Below are positions 16,398-64,000 of a DNA stretch of 64,000 nucleotides, one piece after another (positions within the stretch are counted from its first letter, which is position 1; each line of letters opens with the position of its first letter). The stretch comes from Podarcis pityusensis (taxonomy: Eukaryota): NCBI GenBank assembly GCA_964106645.2, contig OZ067041.1; one strand, 5' to 3'. Under the pieces are notes generated by a model, which had not been told where the DNA came from, did no database searches, and was given only the letters and a program-made list of their open reading frames with translations. Position numbers and translations under genes: made by a program.

Positions 16398-17255
16398 AGC
16401 TAGATTGGAGCAATAGTTTGACTATTGGTTCCTGTGTTCCCCTTGGTGCTGATGTGCATGTCAGGTGCATTCCCTGAATTAATGCATCGTGTCCAGTGCA
16501 CGCATTGTCACTGAGGGGAAGAGACTTGCCTTTCACATTCCCAATTGCCCCTGTCATACATTCAAACTGAACATCTGAGGAGTTTGGAGACCTCAGAGAA
16601 CTATATTCAGTGCTCTGTGTGTGTGTGTGTGCCTGCACTCCAGTGGGAATGCTACAAGAGATCAGACCATCACGATCTGGGCTGAGATCTGGGAATCTCA
16701 GTTTTCATTTGGCATTAGACTTTCTTCTAGTCCTGATGGAGGAAGAATGTGTGTGTGTGTAGGCAGAAACGTATCAATATTGTAAGATTTGGAATTCCTA
16801 GGCACAGACATCTGGTTATCTTACTACAAAAGTGTAGGTGTTATGGAAGGAAGGTGGTTGGCATTGAATATATTCATTTATGATTATGGGTTTGATTTTT
16901 TTTTTTTTTTTTTAGTTATATCAGTAGAGCACCGATAAGCAATTCCTAGTCTGCCTTTTTCATTAGCATGCAAATTAAAACTATGAAAGAAAACGGTCTT
17001 TTTAATGTTTCCCCTTTCTATAGCAGGATCACTTTTTGTCCTTCCCTTTGTCCAAAGCACATGCTCATATATTAAAGACAACTGCAGAGTTCTGCCTTAG
17101 TACCTCATCAAACAGTTGCAGCATTAAATCAAAATTCCTGGACAGAACCTCATTGGAAACTCTTCTGTGAAAAAAAGAGAAGACTGGGAGGAAGGAAGGA
17201 AGGAAGGGAAGGAAGGAAGGGACCACAAAAACGAGTTGATATCTTTCAATTATTC

Positions 17256-18402
17256 TGGGGGCCTCTAGGGGGCGCATCGGAAGATGGCTGACAATAACAT
17301 CTCTCCGACCCACACGAGGTAATTTGGAGGCTATGATGGGAGTAATTAGCCTCCCTAACCCCCCCCCCAGGACGGTGGGGGGGGCTGCCTTTGCCTGCTG
17401 TGCCCTATACCACCCCCGAACTTGTGGGGATGGGGGCACTAGGCACAAAGCCCTCCTGTGGGATTCCAGCACTCCTGGACGCCGTCCCTGATTCGCGCCA
17501 CTAGCTGCTAGAACTTCAAAAGAAAACAATTTGGATGAAGGAATGCACATATTTCAAGGAAGGAGGGGAGTAAAGACTGCTATAGAAGAGATCTCTGATA
17601 AAACAAGACAAGAATAAAACATGAGAAGATACGCCAAGACACGGTATGGCAAATGACTGATGGGGGAGGGGAAAAAAACTTTCCTTTCTTTTCTTATGTG
17701 ATTAACAAGAATCCCCTCCCCTCACGAGTCACGAGTCAGAAATGTCGTTTTAAGGACTTAAGCTGTGGATTTAAGGCTGTGTGGAGATAAACTTTCGAAC
17801 CAAAGCATGTTTTAAGAAGAGCGAGGAATGTATAAGAGCTTGGGAATGACGCAGTTAAAAATGCCATCGCCATATTGGGAAGTTCTGTCGGAGGTCTTGA
17901 GTCTGGGAGGAGAAAGAGAGAAATAGAGCTGTTTCTATATTGTGGGTGGAACTCCTCAGAGGGACTTAAGAGCGACAGCTTTGCGAGATGGAAAGAGTGA
18001 TGTTATCTATGAAGGCGATGATATATGGAAACCATCTCGATTTGAGGAATGGAAGAACGGAAAATTCACACAGGATTATTATTATTATTGGTGTTTATCG
18101 GCTTAAGGAGACTATCAGAAGAGATCATAAAGAAAAAAGAGAAAATATATAAACAAGATGTGATGTGGAAACAGCAAGATAAGACTGGATAGAATTATGA
18201 ACTCTGTTTGGACTGATTTGGACTGATTTGGACATTAACGCAGTAGCAAGAAGATGATCAGAATCCCCCTTCGGATCTTGAAATATGGGTCCCCCCAACA
18301 AAATTTAAAATTCGGCTTTGTAATTCGGAATTTATGTGATGTGATTTAATTTGATTTGATTGACCGGTTAATAAAAATTATTTAAAAAAAGAAAAGAAAA
18401 AA
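17256..18402 (+). mobile_element. Non-coding poly(A) retroposon (L1-mobilised type), ~1.15 kb
   Basis: Perfect 18-bp TSD GATATCTTTCAATTATTC (17238-17255, 18403-18420); AATAAA at 18370 plus A-rich tail; GC-rich head with AAGATGGC. Confidence 0.88.
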
Positions 18403-23124: not shown

Positions 23125-24500
23125 ATTTTATAAATATTTTTATTCAGTTGCCAATACAAAATTATACAATCAAATCATCATTTTTATCACCCATAGCTCC
23201 TTTTTTTAACTTCCCTCAGCTTGTCTGATAATCATCCATTTTACTTACTTCTTCCACATTTCTTAATTTAATATTGCACTACAATATTATTTTACTCTTT
23301 ATCTTATTTTTTTAACAATATTTCTCGCATATATTATCACAAAACTTCTTTAAAACTTACAAACGTTATCTGATTATCACTTAATTTTTGCATATATTCT
23401 GTAAATTTACTCCAGTCTTCAGTAAATCTCTGGTCACGTCGGTTCCGCATCCTTTCTGTTAATTTATCAAGTTCCGCATAGTCTATCATTTTCATTCTCC
23501 ATTCTTCCATCGTAGATAGTTCTTCTTGTTTCCATTTCTGGGCCATCAATATTCTTGCTGCTGTCACCGCATATAAAAACAATTTTCTTTCTTTCTTATT
23601 AATCTCATTACCTATTATTCCTAGTAAAAATGCTTCTGTTTTTTTAACAAATGTATATTTCAACATTTTCTTCAATTCATTATATATCATTTCCCAAAAG
23701 CCTCTTACTTTTTTACACTCCCACCACATGTGATAAAACGTTTCTTCTTTTTCTTTACATTTCCAACACTTATTACTTGTTTTATACATCTTTGCTAACT
23801 TCACTGGTGTTGTATACCATCTATACATCATTTTCATCACATTTTCTTTTATTGTAGTACATGCAGTGAATCTTATTCCCTCCTTCCATAATTTTATCCA
23901 ATCATCTAATTGTATGTTACATCCAAAATCTTTGGCCCATTCAATCATCACTCCCTTCACTTCTTCATCCTTCGTATACCATTCCAATAATAATTTATAC
24001 ATTTTCGCCAAGTTTTTCATCCCATTATTCAATATCTCTTTCTAAAACTTTGATTCCTTATCAGAGAAACCTCTTTGATTCAAATCCTTCTTAAACATTT
24101 CATTAATCTGAAAATAGTGCAGCCAATCATTAACATATTCTTTGACCGCTTCATATGGTTTCATTTTCCATTTGTTTCCTACCCTTATTATTAACTTCCC
24201 ATATGTCGCCCAATCCCCCCTCATATTTGTCTTTTTCACACTCATTGCCTCCAATGGAGATAACCAAAGTGGGGTTTTGGGCTCCAATAAATTCTTATAC
24301 CTCTCCCATACTTCAATGAGAGATTTACAGATAATGTGGTTTTCAAAATTCTTATGAACACGTTTCTTATCATACCACAGATATGCGTGCCACCCAAATC
24401 TATTATCAAAACCTTCCAAATCTAACAGTTCTGTGTTTTCTAATTTCATCCAATCTTTTAACCAACAGAGGCAAGATGCCTCATAATATAATTTCAAGTC
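23125..24500 (-). mobile_element. 5'-truncated L1 LINE: ORF2 C-terminus with zinc knuckle plus 3' UTR
   Basis: DLKLYYEA...CWKC-x8-HMWWEC (zf-RVT); one continuous frame 24500-23337 broken only by a stop at 24042; minus-strand AATAAA at ~23140. Confidence 0.93.
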
Positions 24501-24599
24501 TTTCTGCCCCTGTCCAGAGACTATCAGTGAAGACTGAAAACTATCCAAAGTGGGTTTCAACACAGCATGAAGAATTGCATTTAGGAAGAAAAATCAGAG

Positions 24600-24715
24600 A
24601 CAAATGGAGGGCAACCGAAATGATTGAGGGAATGGGGAAACTCCCCTGTGAGGCAAGGTTACAGTATTTGAGGTGTTTTGGAGAAGAGGCAAGTAAGAGG
24701 AGATTGGATAAAGGT
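24600..24715 (+). mobile_element. CR1 ORF2 fragment
   Basis: RATEMIEGMGKLPCEARLQYL matches the CR1 RATKMI.GLE.L.YEERL motif. Confidence 0.75.
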
Positions 24716-27230: not shown

Positions 27231-28301
27231 ATGTACAATAAACTCTGGAACTGGTTCCAAACCAAAGTGTTGTCCACCTGATGTTAAATCATGTGCAAAG
27301 GCATCAAAAACTACCTTGCCTCATTTTGTATTAATATCGCCACATTTGACAAGGGGAGTTTTGCATGGCAGTTGTGTAAACACTGTCTTTTCTGCCTATC
27401 ATGGTGGTGAAATTAGGAATAATAGGCACACTTTATTCCTGCAACCATAGCATTACTGAGGGTTTATGAACAAAATGATGAATTTAGAATAAACCCCATT
27501 TATGGTATTCCGCATTACCACGAGTACATAATCCTTTCCGCAGGCTAAAAGACTGTCAATAGGCTACTTCATAAAATAATGAATGTTTGCAGTAACAATT
27601 TCATGGGTTGGCTGCAAGTTAATAGCCTTTATTTCCAGTGTAACTTCCTTAGAGGTAGCCTAGTAAACAGTTTTTATATTTATAATATATTATGTTAACA
27701 ATGCTACTTATTTTCTAGTTTGATAAAGACATTATATTTTAGTATGACTGGCCGCAACAATGACAAGGGGGAATATTTAGAGCACACTATATTTTGACTG
27801 CCGTTTAGAATAATCATGGCAAACGGGAAATTCTGTTCACTTTGGTCTCTTATTGATCTGTTTGATTTCTATTCCCACTCATCCTTCAGACTGTTAAGGA
27901 CTTTGTACACAGAGTTGAATCCAGAGAGTGCTAGTTAGTTAGGGGATAGATTCAGGGGGTTTAGTCACAATGGAAACAATGGCATTTTAAGTTTTCCATC
28001 ACATATTTCTCCTTTTGATTCCAGTGAGGCTAAAGGAGCAATCCTGTACATGTCTATTCAGAAACACAGGATAGCAGCAGTTTCAGTTCCTCAGTATCCA
28101 ACCCACAGTATTTTGTTTTTCTAATTTATGTCATGCTGAGAAACAGTGTTTGCATGATCACCTGGGAGTTTTAAGTATTTTATTTATTATTTGGGAGATT
28201 TTATAGCCTGCTTTCTTACTGGAATTCCTAAAACAGATTACAAGAAGGATTGGTAGATCTTTGGGTGATCTGCCGCAGGTCAACAAAGGCTTCTGATTCT
28301 C

Positions 28302-29996
28302 GACTTCCGGGTTGGCGCCATCGCCGAATGGCGGACTCCCTCCGAGCTCCGGAGGGAGCCTGCTCGGCAGGGGCTGGGTCCTACCGCACCGGCGATGCGG
28401 GGACCCTTAAAAACCACGGCCACGGGGGCCGTGGACATGGAGACTCGGCTGGCACCGCTAGCGCCCTCCCGACTCGTGAAGGAGCCTTTTTAAAGGCTAC
28501 GGATCGGGTGCCGGGGAGAAGCGTGGTGCTTTGAGTCCTCTGCTATCCCTGCCGAGCGCAGCCGCATGCCATCCGGCGGAGAGCGCTGACTTCTTCCATT
28601 GAAAATTCGGACTTCTTAACAACAACCCGTGAGTAATTTGGAAACCGGGTTTAAAAGGAGGAAAAAAAAGAATTTTTTTTTTGGATTGGACACGAGCGGG
28701 GGGGATCCAAAAAGGAAGTCAGTCCCCCCCCCTACTGTAAACCTTCCAAAACAAGGACGGGGAAACCAAGGTCCAAAAAGATTTGTATTGCTGATAAAAA
28801 CTAAGAATTCCACGATGGGGAACTATAAGAACTGTGCTGGAGGAAGAATTGAGGGTGAAGAAACGTAACCCCCCCCCCTGGGAACCGGGGTGATTGAAGA
28901 GAGAGCCTGGTGAAAAGAGTCGGAGATTTTGACAGCTGTCAAAGTAGCTGTCAAAGTCGGAAAGCAGAGAGGATTTTATTATGAGAACTTTGCTGGTTAA
29001 ATTTGTTACAATTTGCTACAACTCGTTAAAACTTGGATATAAAATGGCGAAAACATGGATAACAATCGGACTTTTGGACTAGAGAAAACAAAGTTACAAC
29101 AATCCCCCTAGAGGAGTTTCGGGACATTACAAAGATGGTCGTAAGTGGAAAAATACCATTGGAATTTTACAGGACTGGTTATCTTCTGGGAAAGCTGCAA
29201 AACGGAAATAATATTTTGTCTACAGGGTGTTCAGCTAAAGGAGACAATAGAATTTTCTATTGAAGAAAGGAAGGGACTGAACGCAAGTTTTTGTTCCTGA
29301 ATAACAATAATCCCTGCAGATTCACTAAGCTTCTGAATTAGAACGTTTCAGCAGCGGAACAAGAGGAAATTGGACTACAATTTGGAAAGAACAATGGGGG
29401 GAGTTTTATTTTATTAAAGATCTGAAGTTAAGTGTTTTAAAAAATAACTATAAAAAGAAAAAGCCAGCAAGGAGTTGGGGGAAATAGGTGATTTATGGAC
29501 TTTAAGAATTCCCGGCGGATAACATGGTTTGGTGGTCAGGGGGAAATTAAACCGGGGACAGGGGGGGGAGAACTAAAATCCAAAGGCTTGTTAACTTCTT
29601 TTTTTTCTTTGAACTGGCTCTTTTTCATTTATTATATTTTTTATTTCTTATTTCTGATATTTCTATTGTGTGGGGTGTCCTTATCATTAAAAAAAGGGAA
29701 ATTGTGGAATGAAAATGGGGTGGGCCCTGGGGAGAGAACTTTTGTTTTTTTTATTAGGGGTATTGATGAGGAGTGTATAAATTTTAAATTTGAATAATGG
29801 TCTAAACAAATTAAGTTTCAATTAGAACTGAGAGCTTGTGGAGCCAACAATATGAAATGGGAATATGGCAGGGGTGGGGGAAGGGGGGAGTCCCAGAAAG
29901 TGGATCTATGAAAATAAGGCTTTGAATGTACTTTAATCTTTACTTTCTGTATTTCTGAAAATCTTAATAAATATCATTAAAAAAAAAAAAAAACAA
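28302..29996 (+). mobile_element. Non-coding poly(A) retroposon (L1-mobilised type), ~1.7 kb
   Basis: Perfect 21-bp TSD CAACAAAGGCTTCTGATTCTC (28281-28301, 29997-30017); CpG-rich head starting GACTTCCGG; AATAAA at 29966 plus poly(A). Confidence 0.9.
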
Positions 29997-31335
29997 CAAC
30001 AAAGGCTTCTGATTCTCACCTGTTTAAAACTAGCAACAGCAGCTTATCCCAGCTAATTTTTTCCACAAGAATTTCATGATGAGGCTACAGAATGCCGGAT
30101 AAATGCTTAACAGAAAGAAAAATATATCGCCCATTACCACCTCGTAACAATCAAATATGCTCAAGCCTGTACTAACCAACATTCTGAAAGAATTAAAAAG
30201 TGCTCTGAGGAAAAGGGAGAAAAATAGAAGCTTCTTTTGTGGGGGAATTTTTGAGAAATTGGCTCATAGGCTTCATCACAGCACTCACTAATGAGGATAA
30301 CTCCAGAATGATCAACTCTGAGAGAGGCACTTTTGATTTTTTTTACTGGCCGTCATATAGTCCCAGCCTATAGTTTGCTTCCTCTGTCTTGCTTCCTTTG
30401 TTTCTCAGTGTGTATTGATTTTTCAGGGGGGGGTGCAGGCACACTGACACATGCACGTGTGGGAGACAGAAATGAATGGTGGCAAAGCTGTCAAATCCAA
30501 AGCCCCACAAATTAATCATCCCTATACATTCACAGATCAGGCACAGCGCGTATAACAACAGATCAATTTTCTCTCATACCACCTACCGCTGTGTCTGAAT
30601 CATGACCTGTAAAGGCTATTTTCAAGGGAGGTGGTATAATTCATTTTCCCATGTTTAGTTCATTGTTAGGCTCTCTGACAAAAAGACAGAAAATTGGTGT
30701 GAAGCGTTTATTTAATTAATATTTCTCCACTGTTGCCACCCACCTCTTCCCTTATCCTGAGAGCTCAGAATTGGTGACAAGGCTAAAAAGACTTTGATAA
30801 AAAAAAACCTAACAAAATAAAATACTTCTTTAAAACATTATAGTACTCTGTGGATATTCTTTCTTTCTTTTTAATACCATTTGTTTGCTTAACCTTGCTA
30901 ATTAAAGTGAGTGTAATGTTTAGGCCCTAAACCAAAATGCCTTATATGACATTTGGAAAGTGCTCGGCAAAAGGAACTCAATAGTTCTCAAGGGGAGCCC
31001 ATATACCCTGCAAAATGAGTAGAAGACACCACAAACTATGGGTTCAATGCATATCCTACTGAAATCAATGGGGACACTGCCATGCTACTGAATGGAATAG
31101 GCTATCCCCATGCACAGGTCTGTGCTTGTGAATGTAACCCCTGAGCCTAGCATAGCTAATTGCTCTTATGGCCTAGTGATGCTGTGAAATGGGTCCAGGA
31201 GACACCATATCCTGCCATCTGTCAGGAGCTGTTGAGCCTGGGGCCAGGAAGCTACTGCTCTGTACACAGCTGCTCCAGGAGTAGGGATGTGAGGAGGCAA
31301 CAATTCCCTTCATGTCCTATGTCCATCACAATCAA

Positions 31336-61779: not shown

Positions 61780-64000
61780 GCGGCAAATGGGGCGGGGAAC
61801 GAGGGAGGACCAGAAGGTGAACCTACTGGTGTTAACAGTCTCCTGCTGCGTCGTTAAGCGCTCCTGAACTCAGGTGATTATTTGGAGCCATGCCACGGCT
61901 GGAAGAAGAAGATGATGAGGATGAAGAAGAGTGTCGGGTATTTGCTTGCTCGCTGACGGTCGTTTGCAAGACAACCCTGTCGCCTTTCTGTCTCTTGCTG
62001 TGCTCCTGGTGCTTCTTCCAGCTGGTCGGAGGAGGATTCTCGGAGGGTCCTAGCGTGGAAGGAGAAAGAACGGGGCTGGCAACGGTTTGCGGACGGAAAA
62101 CCAGCAAGCCTGTATTTTTCACCAGGCACGAAGGACTTAATAACCACCCAGAGTAAAACTGGCAGACGAGTCAAAGGAAGGTAGAGAAGGGGAAATCATG
62201 GAGAGCAAAAGGAAACTCAATCGTGGTTAGAAGCAAAGAAAAAGAAAGAAATGCTACAGAGGAAAGGGGGGTGGGTAGGGAAAAAAATAGAAATGAAAGT
62301 ATAAAAAACAGAGTGAGAAACACTGATTATCTCTCTCTGCCCCGCCCCCCGCCTCTAAAAACCCCCCTCCTAATTTGCAAGTAGGGAAGGGGAGGGAGAG
62401 GAGCGGCATGTACCACTAATTCTCAAAGGGAGGGGGAGGAAGCCATTGTGACATACCCTCCGCTCCCACCTTCCCGCTCCCGGGTGTCCGGCTTCCTCGT
62501 CGGAGGCGTCGAGTCGTTGAGACCGGGGACGTCCCGTCAGAGAAAGGCCTTCAGGGAAAGAGAAGCACAAAGGAGGGGGGGACCCGCGCTCTCAACGCCC
62601 CTCCCCTGGCGGTCGGGATGGTCCGTCCCGTTCCTTCGGTGGGAGGAGGAGGAGGAGGAGGGGCAGCGGGCGCGACGCCTCCCCGCGCAGCGACACACGG
62701 ACCCGGCGCTGCGAAGGGAAGGAGGCGGAGGAGGAGGCTGCGCTGCCGAGCCGTAGCGGCGGCGGTTGCTGCTGCTGCTGCTGAGAACGGAGCCCCCAGC
62801 ATGGCCGGGTCCATTGTGGCGGCGGACGCTCCGCCGGCTCCTCCCGGCCGCCGCCGCCGCCGCTGCTCGTCCTCTTCCCCTCCATCTCGGCTCTGTTGCC
62901 ACCGCCGCCCGGCTGCGCCCGCCCTGCCCGGCTTGCTCTCGCTGGGCTTGCTCCTCTCCCGCGTCTGCTGCGGTGAGTCGCCGCAGAAACTTTTCTCTCT
63001 TTTTTCCGCGAAGGGGGCGGCGGCTCCTCTCCGGACCAAACCAGTTCCCTCTCCCCCTCCAGCCTCTCCCCTCCGTCGTCCGAGCGCGGGGCGCGAAGGG
63101 GCCGCCGCTGTGGGAGGGACGGAGGTTGAGAAAGAGCGAGCGAGGGAGGGAGAAGTGGCGGGCGGGACTTAGGGGAAACTTTTCCCTCAACCGCTAGTCG
63201 GGAGAAGTTGCGTGTCCGGTGGAGGCGAGGTGGGCCAAGCCGGAGGCGAGAGACCCCGGCCGGAGGCGCAGGGGCGGCGGGAGGAGGGGAAGTGCCTCGC
63301 GTCTTTTCTCTTCATGAGGGGAAATGGAGGAACCAACCTCGAGGGTCCTTCCCCCCCACCCCTTTTTCAACATTTCGCGAGGGGGGGCTGGAGGGTGAGC
63401 TTATTCGGTGTGGGGGGGCGGTTGCTGCTTCTGGGTGTGGCGCTCGAGGGGGGCTTCTTGTGAAGGGGGGGCGCGCGAAGCCGGGCAAGAGTTGTGGGGC
63501 GTCGAAGAGCAAGCGATGTGTGCGAGGGTGTGTCTTGTCTGCAGCTCATGTTCCTCTGCTGAGATAAATACTCGTTTTCTCGTGCGCTCGTTAAAAGGCA
63601 CACACATACACGGAGGCAGCGCTTTCCGAGCCCGTGGCTGGGCTAGCACGATCAACATCCCCCCGCTTCCCCGACTTGTCTCCGGCAGGCGGGAGCCTCG
63701 AAGGTCCGCCGCTCTTTTTAATAGTTTGTGTGTATTTGTGCGTTGCCAACCCCGCGCATCTGCTATTCCGGGAGCGCTCCTCTGCCCGGCGTCGGCGCGC
63801 AGGCGGAGAGAGTGAGCGTGTGTGTCCTGCCGCCTTGTTGTGTTTTGTTGTCGGCGCTGTTGCTGGGAGTTGGAGCTGTTGGGATTCCACTTGTCACTTG
63901 GAGCCGCCGCCGCCGAGACCGTTACGTCCGGCATTCTGGGAGCTGCGCTGGCTGGAAGCTGCTCTCGCTCGTCTCCGTTCTGTCTCGGCTGATGACGGGG
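61780..64000. promoter_or_regulatory. CpG-island promoter
   Basis: Abrupt rise in GC and CpG; GC box GGGGCGGGG at ~61789; (GGA)n, (GCT)n and (GCC)n runs; contains a first coding exon. Confidence 0.92.
62801..62972 (+). CDS. NECTIN3: First coding exon (signal peptide) of a cell-surface/secreted protein, best match nectin-3
   Basis: Strong Kozak CCCAGCATGG. Encodes MAGSIVAADAPPAPPGRRRRRCSSSSPPSRLCCHRRPAAPALPGLLSLGLLLSRVCC-G(phase 1) and ends at the donor GCG|GTGAGT. As recalled, mammalian nectin-3 exon 1 is a similarly long Pro-rich leader ending LLLFSRLC-G in phase 1. The exon is well supported; the symbol rests on a short motif and is tentative. Confidence 0.6.

Follow-up and report, generated by a model that had tools for sequence, protein, structure and literature searches.

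A protein-free LINE-1 derivative in the lizard Podarcis pityusensis and its probable descent from HAL1-like elements

The proteins of LINE-1 (L1) retrotransposons prefer their own RNA. Retention of ORF1 by parasites derived from L1 is put down to the protein improving their own RNA as a substrate (PMC2241872, in part). Bao and Jurka (2010) reportedly made the stronger claim that ORF1p is essential. A retroposon without any recognisable protein, bearing a head like that of an L1, lies within the window (the whole stretch of 64,000 nucleotides of Podarcis pityusensis DNA analysed here) and raises the question of what it descends from and how it is copied. This element is called element 2, and a second ORF-less retroposon in the same window is called element 1 (Table 1).

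Structure and abundance of element 2

The first-pass annotation of this locus described a perfect 21-bp target site duplication (TSD), a head of about 300 bp with intact CpGs, two hairpins, and AATAAA with poly(A), and it judged the element to be young; most of this description holds. The TSD is exact, cannot be extended, and occurs twice in the window. At the 3' end, AATAAA begins at 29966, and A15 (29979-29993) is followed by CAA. The GC content is 62-73% across the first 300 bp, and the observed/expected CpG ratio is 0.95 in the head versus 0.30 in the window. Both hairpins are present; however, the pairing of CGCCAT (28316-28321) with ATGGCG (28328-28333) is not kept among relatives, in which ATGGCG is invariant and CGCCAT varies. 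The second hairpin is retained with changed stems in most of them. The predicted fold of the head outperforms 100 of 100 shuffles (z -5.7), and two further head stems show both-sided changes among relatives. Over 20 compared heads, 8 of 29 predicted pairs have changed on both sides, a count that is supportive only, since related sequences can yield such counts. The internal 12-bp palindrome, which may resemble a TALE-homeodomain site, is present in 6 of 7 sequences of the element 2 clade, in 7 of 7 sister sequences, and in 0 of 22 others.

Table 1. Positions of the features of elements 2 and 1 in the window
Feature	Position	Strand	Basis
Element 2, full-length ORF-less non-autonomous L1 derivative	28302..29996	+	38/40 scored genome matches near whole-length at 95-100%; TSDs 30/30
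Left TSD (21 bp)	28281..28301	+	Exact copy at 29997-30017
Right TSD (21 bp)	29997..30017	+	Exact copy of left TSD
Head, homologous to lizard clade-1 L1 5'UTR	28302..28636	+	62-75% identity to six L1s; clade-1 terminal motif
Hairpin, 9-bp stem	28336..28358	+	Per-sequence folds; stems changed yet kept in most L1/HAL1-like relatives
Donor-like to acceptor-like segment	28629..29111	+	Donor-like in 35/36, acceptor-like in 24/36 L1, HAL1-like and element 2 sequences
12-bp palindrome	28930..28941	+	Confined, among sequences compared, to element 2 clade and nearest HAL1-like sister groups
Decayed start of ancestral ORF1-derived ORF; 42 aa from ATG, premature stop	29135..29263	+	
Remaining decayed ORF to degraded C-terminal motif and deletion junction	29264..29522	+	Collinear with six sister elements
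Diverged tail from ORF2 end and 3'UTR; G-rich motif ~29870-29892	29523..29965	+	
AATAAA and poly(A) tail	29966..29996	+	Sequence
Element 1, 1.1-kb ORF-less poly(A) retroposon family, unrelated to element 2	17257..18402	+	

Element 2 is neither a SINE nor an autonomous L1. Its head is an L1 5'UTR rather than a Pol III-type head derived from tRNA, 5S, 7SL, or snRNA, and it has no intact ORF1 and ORF2; the longest stop-to-stop frame on the plus strand is 101 codons. A tblastn search with eight ORF2 proteins of another L1 subgroup found no ORF2 homology in it, and an Rfam search gave no match up to an E value of 1. Other repeats in the window look like Sauria SINEs; together with the Podarcis lilfordi annotation given below, they point to a lacertid as the most likely host.

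Element 2 is a young, mostly full-length family of about a thousand copies that encodes no protein. A search of the 1.5-Gb genome returned 1,705 candidates, and all 40 that were scored are 95-100% identical to the element, 38 of them near full length; identity is 99.8% between two copies that are not linked. A 24-mer from the head is matched exactly at 1,065 places (control, 0), and 51 of 57 tail probes on one contig (C1) have a head 1.3-1.7 kb upstream. The best 30 copies fetched all have poly(A), unique flanks, and TSDs of 12-22 bp, and their longest frame is also 101 codons. A second sample of 20 copies, comprising 19 taken from every fifth listing place and one picked old relative, matches the consensus from head to tail at 76-99% identity, with a TSD in 17 of 20 (these being 1,673-1,752 bases long) and no frame longer than 102 codons after base 340. 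Because these subfamilies are only 76-99% alike and all lack the ORF, the ORF-less state is common to subfamilies about 25% apart. The consensus likewise has no ORF1, so that two of the conditions named by the first-pass annotation as refuting its reading, an intact ORF1 and a single copy, do not hold. Pfam Transposase_22 had no hit in the genome, nor did the control for that search, and Pfam missed even the intact lizard ORF1s, so the HMM test proposed in the first-pass annotation is insensitive here.

The insertions carry the hallmarks of L1-type integration. TSDs of 12-22 bp were found in 47 of 50 copies, and in 44 of these 47 a pyrimidine immediately precedes the TSD. Extra 5' bases are present on 25 of the 47, and 20 of those 25 end in G. 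Addition of a G without a template has been described for the capped RNAs of L1 and SVA (PMC4859970, in part).

The L1 head and the HAL1-like sister families

As the first-pass annotation had supposed, the head is of L1 origin. The first 290-370 bases of element 2 share 62-75% identity with six L1s of the same genome, and the 5' consensus published for lizard clade-1 L1 carries its terminal motif (PMC5381506, in the part available). A pattern made from this motif has 5,367 matches in the genome and 4 in a control. By its sequence, the head is a lizard clade-1 L1 5'UTR, and it likely acts as an internal Pol II promoter. Among 40 head loci outside the element 2 family, drawn from the first 100 listed matches and chosen partly for variety, 11 are L1s with ORF1 and ORF2, 23 are short derivatives, and 6 are of other kinds. 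Both ORFs are open in 7 of the 11 L1s. ORF1 of these head-sharing elements matches the human L1 ORF1p structure (E 3e-8) and their ORF2 the human ORF2p structure (E 5e-179), which identifies the parent as an L1. Short derivatives outnumber L1s in this sample (23 versus 11); a large number of the full-length "L1" promoters of these lizards are thus carried by parasites, and element 2 adds about a thousand more.

Several other L1-related loci were encountered. Five loci with a shorter variant of the head motif (L135, L144, L145, L149, and L166) showed no TSD or L1 ORF within 8 kb, apart from one weak 10-bp match. L082, L083, and L085 are full-length L1s that inserted into or next to an existing L1, so that nested arrays result. 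An initial set of 20 L1 loci chosen for their RVT_1 score comes from a different subgroup and resembles element 2 at the tail only. On the minus strand of the window, at about 23130-24600, is a 5'-truncated L1 3' end (ORF2 C-terminus and 3'UTR).

The sister families of element 2 are HAL1-like elements of 1.8-2.2 kb that encode an ORF of 171-210 aa and are collinear with it (L131, L140-L143, L147, L150, L154-L156, L158, L160, L161, L164, L165, L167-L169, and L191-L230). This ORF is related to L1 ORF1 (HHalign Prob 96.8%, E 2.9e-10) and lacks most of the RRM; in L143, L160, and L165 the switch from the end of ORF1 to the final ~100 nt of ORF2 falls at one common position in the DNA. The motif RDL(R/K)ASD(I/V)RxPG followed by a stop ends the ORF in 19 of 23 short elements, and a pattern made from it has 3,573 genome matches (control, 0). 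Forty loci were picked with this pattern. The ORF start is spanned by 24, and 22 of those 24 are intact; the other 16 are without a detectable head and appear mostly 5'-truncated. A protein of these families is listed for Podarcis lilfordi as a hypothetical protein. An AlphaFold model of the HAL1-like protein is of low confidence (mean pLDDT 42.6), with only an N-terminal helix at 70-90.

The HAL1-like proteins are only 19-48% identical between groups, yet the frame stays open and the C-terminal end is kept. Pairwise dN/dS in four groups is 0.39, 0.39, 0.55, and 0.35, based on 145, 35, 9, and 3 pairs, respectively, which are not independent of one another and have a dS above 0.08; the corresponding range for close L1 ORF1 pairs is 0.09-0.24. 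Constraint is strongest in the last 14 codons, where motif-end columns are partly forced by the picking pattern (40 of 59 rows) and the 19 head-picked rows are unbiased. While the proteins drift to about 20% identity, the last ~13 residues are conserved before any of the three stops. A translation-coupled role for this terminal peptide is a guess. A 2A-like nature of the peptide is rejected, as its Pro-Gly is directly followed by a stop. Deletion types other than the main HAL1-like junction also exist. L137 and L139 (~2.4 kb) and L151 (2.2 kb) are separate L1 derivatives with an in-frame fusion between the ORF1 N-terminus and part of ORF2; the structure is common to L137 and L139 (91% aa identity), suggesting a family. 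L133 and L163, each seen as a single copy, are HAL1-like deletion derivatives without most or all of the ORF.

Element 2 aligns collinearly from end to end with six HAL1-like elements. It was first described as an A/G-rich body without a recognisable protein, and although no long ORF is indeed present, comparison with the sisters makes visible the decayed start of an ORF1-derived ORF at 29135 (tblastn E 5.6e-7 to the L169 protein). HMM matches to the ORF start occur in 14 of 21 copies, and the 14 best domain hits all fall there, in forward frames. The remnant stops after 42 aa, and the terminal motif is degraded. Compared with the sisters, element 2 is 73-87% identical in its head and 45-51% identical across the stretch that the ORF once occupied; for the body as a whole the figure is 45-63%. 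The tail is 62-66% identical to the nearest L1 3' ends, those of L136 and L170, and a G-rich motif is found in 25 of 26 tails of L1, HAL1-like, and element 2 sequences. Judged by sequence, element 2 is thus an end-to-end L1 derivative and not an unrelated body under an L1 head.

The element 2 clade is sister to a group comprising L131, L140, and L141 (support 99/98 in the tree of heads, 92/84 in that of tails), and the two nest with a second ORF-bearing group (98/97 and 100/100, respectively). The tail tree has long branches and its L1 rows begin slightly downstream of the true junction, and the head tree alone is no proof of descent, heads being exchangeable between lineages. Loss of the ORF in the ancestor of element 2 is, by parsimony, the simplest reading.

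Origin, transcription, and mobilisation

The proposed history begins with a deletion, which alignment shows, that placed the final ~100 nt of ORF2 and the 3'UTR directly after the end of ORF1, giving a product whose ORF is also without most of the RRM. The HAL1-like families then diversified while relaxed purifying selection preserved the open ORF. One lineage would next have lost the ORF, as parsimony suggests, and gone on amplifying as several subfamilies. Following established L1 biology, the capped and polyadenylated RNA of element 2 would be taken up in trans, with insertion through target-primed reverse transcription; the stems conserved at the 5' end and the G-rich motif near the 3' end are possible cis signals. 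We hold with considerable confidence that element 2 is a protein-free clade-1 L1 derivative that probably descends from a HAL1-like (ORF1-only) lineage by loss of the ORF, and that is likely transcribed from its own 5'UTR and inserted with the ORF2p of intact L1s.

An origin of element 2 straight from an old L1 by deletion, with its HAL1-like likeness due to L1 ancestry and exchange of 5' heads, would dispense with the ORF-bearing intermediate. An AU test rejects the heads of the HAL1-like elements and element 2 as a single clade (p 2e-55). The bodies nevertheless share one motif and one junction, which suggests that heads were exchanged with L1s or that such elements arose more than once, so that events of this kind do occur; the other deletion types described above point the same way. 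However, the palindrome and the context of the ORF start are common to element 2 and its sister groups and are lacking in the sampled L1s. The same is true of the degraded junction motif with its collinear downstream sequence, and the tail tree groups element 2 with the HAL1-like sisters at 100/100. Because of the shared junction in particular, a direct origin from L1 is weakened and is considered improbable. Even less credible is an account in which a single host non-coding RNA gave rise to the copies as processed pseudogenes, or segmental duplication did, in place of a self-propagating family. A Pol II-type structure, poly(A), and an extra 5' G would fit retrocopies as well, but the nested subfamilies (76-99% alike) each include young copies, individual copies have unique flanks and TSDs, Rfam holds no match, and both head and tail are homologous to L1. 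Subfamily structure and L1 homology refute this account.

Descent from the HAL1-like lineage leaves the question of how an ORF-less RNA is made and inserted. Given the observed ancestry and structure of element 2 and the observed presence of intact L1s with the same head, L1 biology makes it very probable that a Pol II transcript starts from the L1 head, is polyadenylated at the element's own signal, and is mobilised in trans by ORF2p of the intact L1s. The extra 5' G and AATAAA of the copies fit Pol II transcription; among candidate helper L1s, the nearest tail identity is only the 62-66% given above. RNA reads from a related organism, mostly 90-95% alike, cover most of element 2, mainly in one orientation in run X24. 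In two bulk runs many reads extend into one upstream flank, which indicates host read-through rather than the internal promoter, and the reads do not separate an own promoter from read-through.

Donor-like and acceptor-like sites flank ~480-550 bp of 5'UTR just before the ORF1 start (L132-L170 and window positions 28629 and 29111), a possible 5'UTR intron in this L1 subgroup and its derivatives. Their conservation, with the acceptor 23 nt before the remnant ATG, is also what might be expected if element 2 still depended on translation, as a minimal coding HAL1 whose RNA reaches ribosomes through a short ORF: one of 68 aa in the head, the remnant of 42 aa, or one in a germline transcript after splicing. 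The ORF of 68 aa begins with the ATG at 28328, and 6 of the 7 sequences of the element 2 clade keep it open. Yet this same upstream ORF is 5-38 aa long in all 29 relatives and 38 aa in one element 2 subfamily, and the remnant ORF differs or is missing between subfamilies. No spliced genomic copy with the 28629-29111 joint was found, and the joint is absent from 1,392 RNA reads on element 2 and from the reads on the HAL1-like L155, both at low depth and from unstated tissues. Dependence on translation is accordingly judged unlikely, though less so than a direct origin from L1.

Comparison with known retroposons and with element 1

Element 2 most resembles HAL1 of mammals (PMC5753468 and PMC2241872, in part): it is a multi-copy, non-autonomous L1 derivative with an L1 5'UTR, no ORF2, 3' poly(A), and the TSDs and other hallmarks of L1 insertion, and HAL1 likewise arose repeatedly. 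The only protein of its sister families likewise comes from ORF1 and changes more quickly than L1 ORF1 does, albeit truncated to 171-210 aa without most of the RRM and in a lizard host. In contrast to HAL1, element 2 encodes no ORF1p at all (no frame longer than 102 codons in 50 copies, and a 42-aa remnant). In this it is like the ORF-absent bipartite LINEs (RIME, NARTc, Vingi-N, RTE-N, and Bov-A; PMC5786205, in part), which consist of LINE 5' and 3' parts, encode no protein, and are mobilised in trans from a presumed Pol II transcript, as proposed here. The two ends of element 2 correspond to those of L1 (head 62-75%, tail 62-66%). However, the ORF-absent derivatives in the portion of Kojima 2018 (PMC5786205) available to us are only of RTE, Ingi, Vingi, and R2, whereas the parent of element 2 is an L1; element 2 is also longer (1.7 kb) and retains a decayed ORF1 remnant rather than a clean deletion.

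Lizard clade-1 L1 has the same 5' terminal motif, long 5'UTR, and A-rich body, and differs in having the ORF1 and ORF2 that element 2 lacks; the available text of PMC5381506 does not contain "nonautonomous", "non-autonomous", "splice", or "intron". SVA of hominids (PMC4859970, in part) is also ~2 kb, non-coding, mostly full length, and marked by an untemplated 5' G, and it is presumably transcribed by Pol II and mobilised by L1, as proposed for element 2, but it is a composite of Alu-like, VNTR, and HERV-K parts, whereas element 2 is derived from L1 itself. The literature searched, at the level of listings, gives no account of these lizard families. A protein-free state of LINE-1 derivatives is not described in it either, although a Repbase or Dfam entry may already exist.

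Protein-free element 2 with its young copies, ORF-bearing sisters, and intact helpers occur together in one genome and so offer naturally matched constructs with which to ask what in an RNA enables a Pol II transcript to use the L1 machinery. A broader view, to which we give about even credence, is that lacertids harbour an undescribed and still-amplifying swarm of L1 parasites that spans the entire route from a LINE to a SINE-like element, leading from L1 through HAL1-like elements to protein-free Pol II elements such as element 2. Within such a swarm, the HAL1-like terminal peptide may couple translation to capture of L1 proteins. On this view, no non-autonomous family lacking an ORF would have been known from the L1 clade before element 2, and cis-encoded ORF1p would be dispensable for success of the HAL1 type.

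Element 1, placed by the first-pass annotation in one common class of repeatedly evolved, L1-headed non-coding retroposons with element 2, was said to share little sequence with it, and the two consensus sequences indeed have only the A/T tail and low-complexity runs in common. Repeated origin is borne out for ORF-bearing short L1 derivatives, which are of several kinds; among ORF-less derivatives, elements 2 and 1 are, by sequence comparison, two unrelated clades, and an L1 origin of element 1 is putative and unproven. The tail of element 1 is without the G-rich motif that element 2 shares with L1, and no autonomous parent was seen among 30 head-matched loci, 24 of which are 1.09-1.18 kb long with a TSD. 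The family has 1,911 genome candidates and 401 exact head matches; of 20 copies, 19 carry a TSD of at least 11 bp. Its subfamilies reach down to 68% identity, and it has no long conserved ORF.

At the far end of the window, positions 62000-64000 are GC-rich (61-64%) and CpG-island-like and probably belong to the promoter or first exon of a host gene. A long poly(T) run at 16896-16915, in the minus-strand feature 16896-17237 that immediately precedes element 1, may be the tail of another retrocopy. The head of element 1 (window 17257-17290; L231-L260) has a core followed by a second motif, which we liken to CTCF and YY1 sites, respectively, and its copies could spread such sites.
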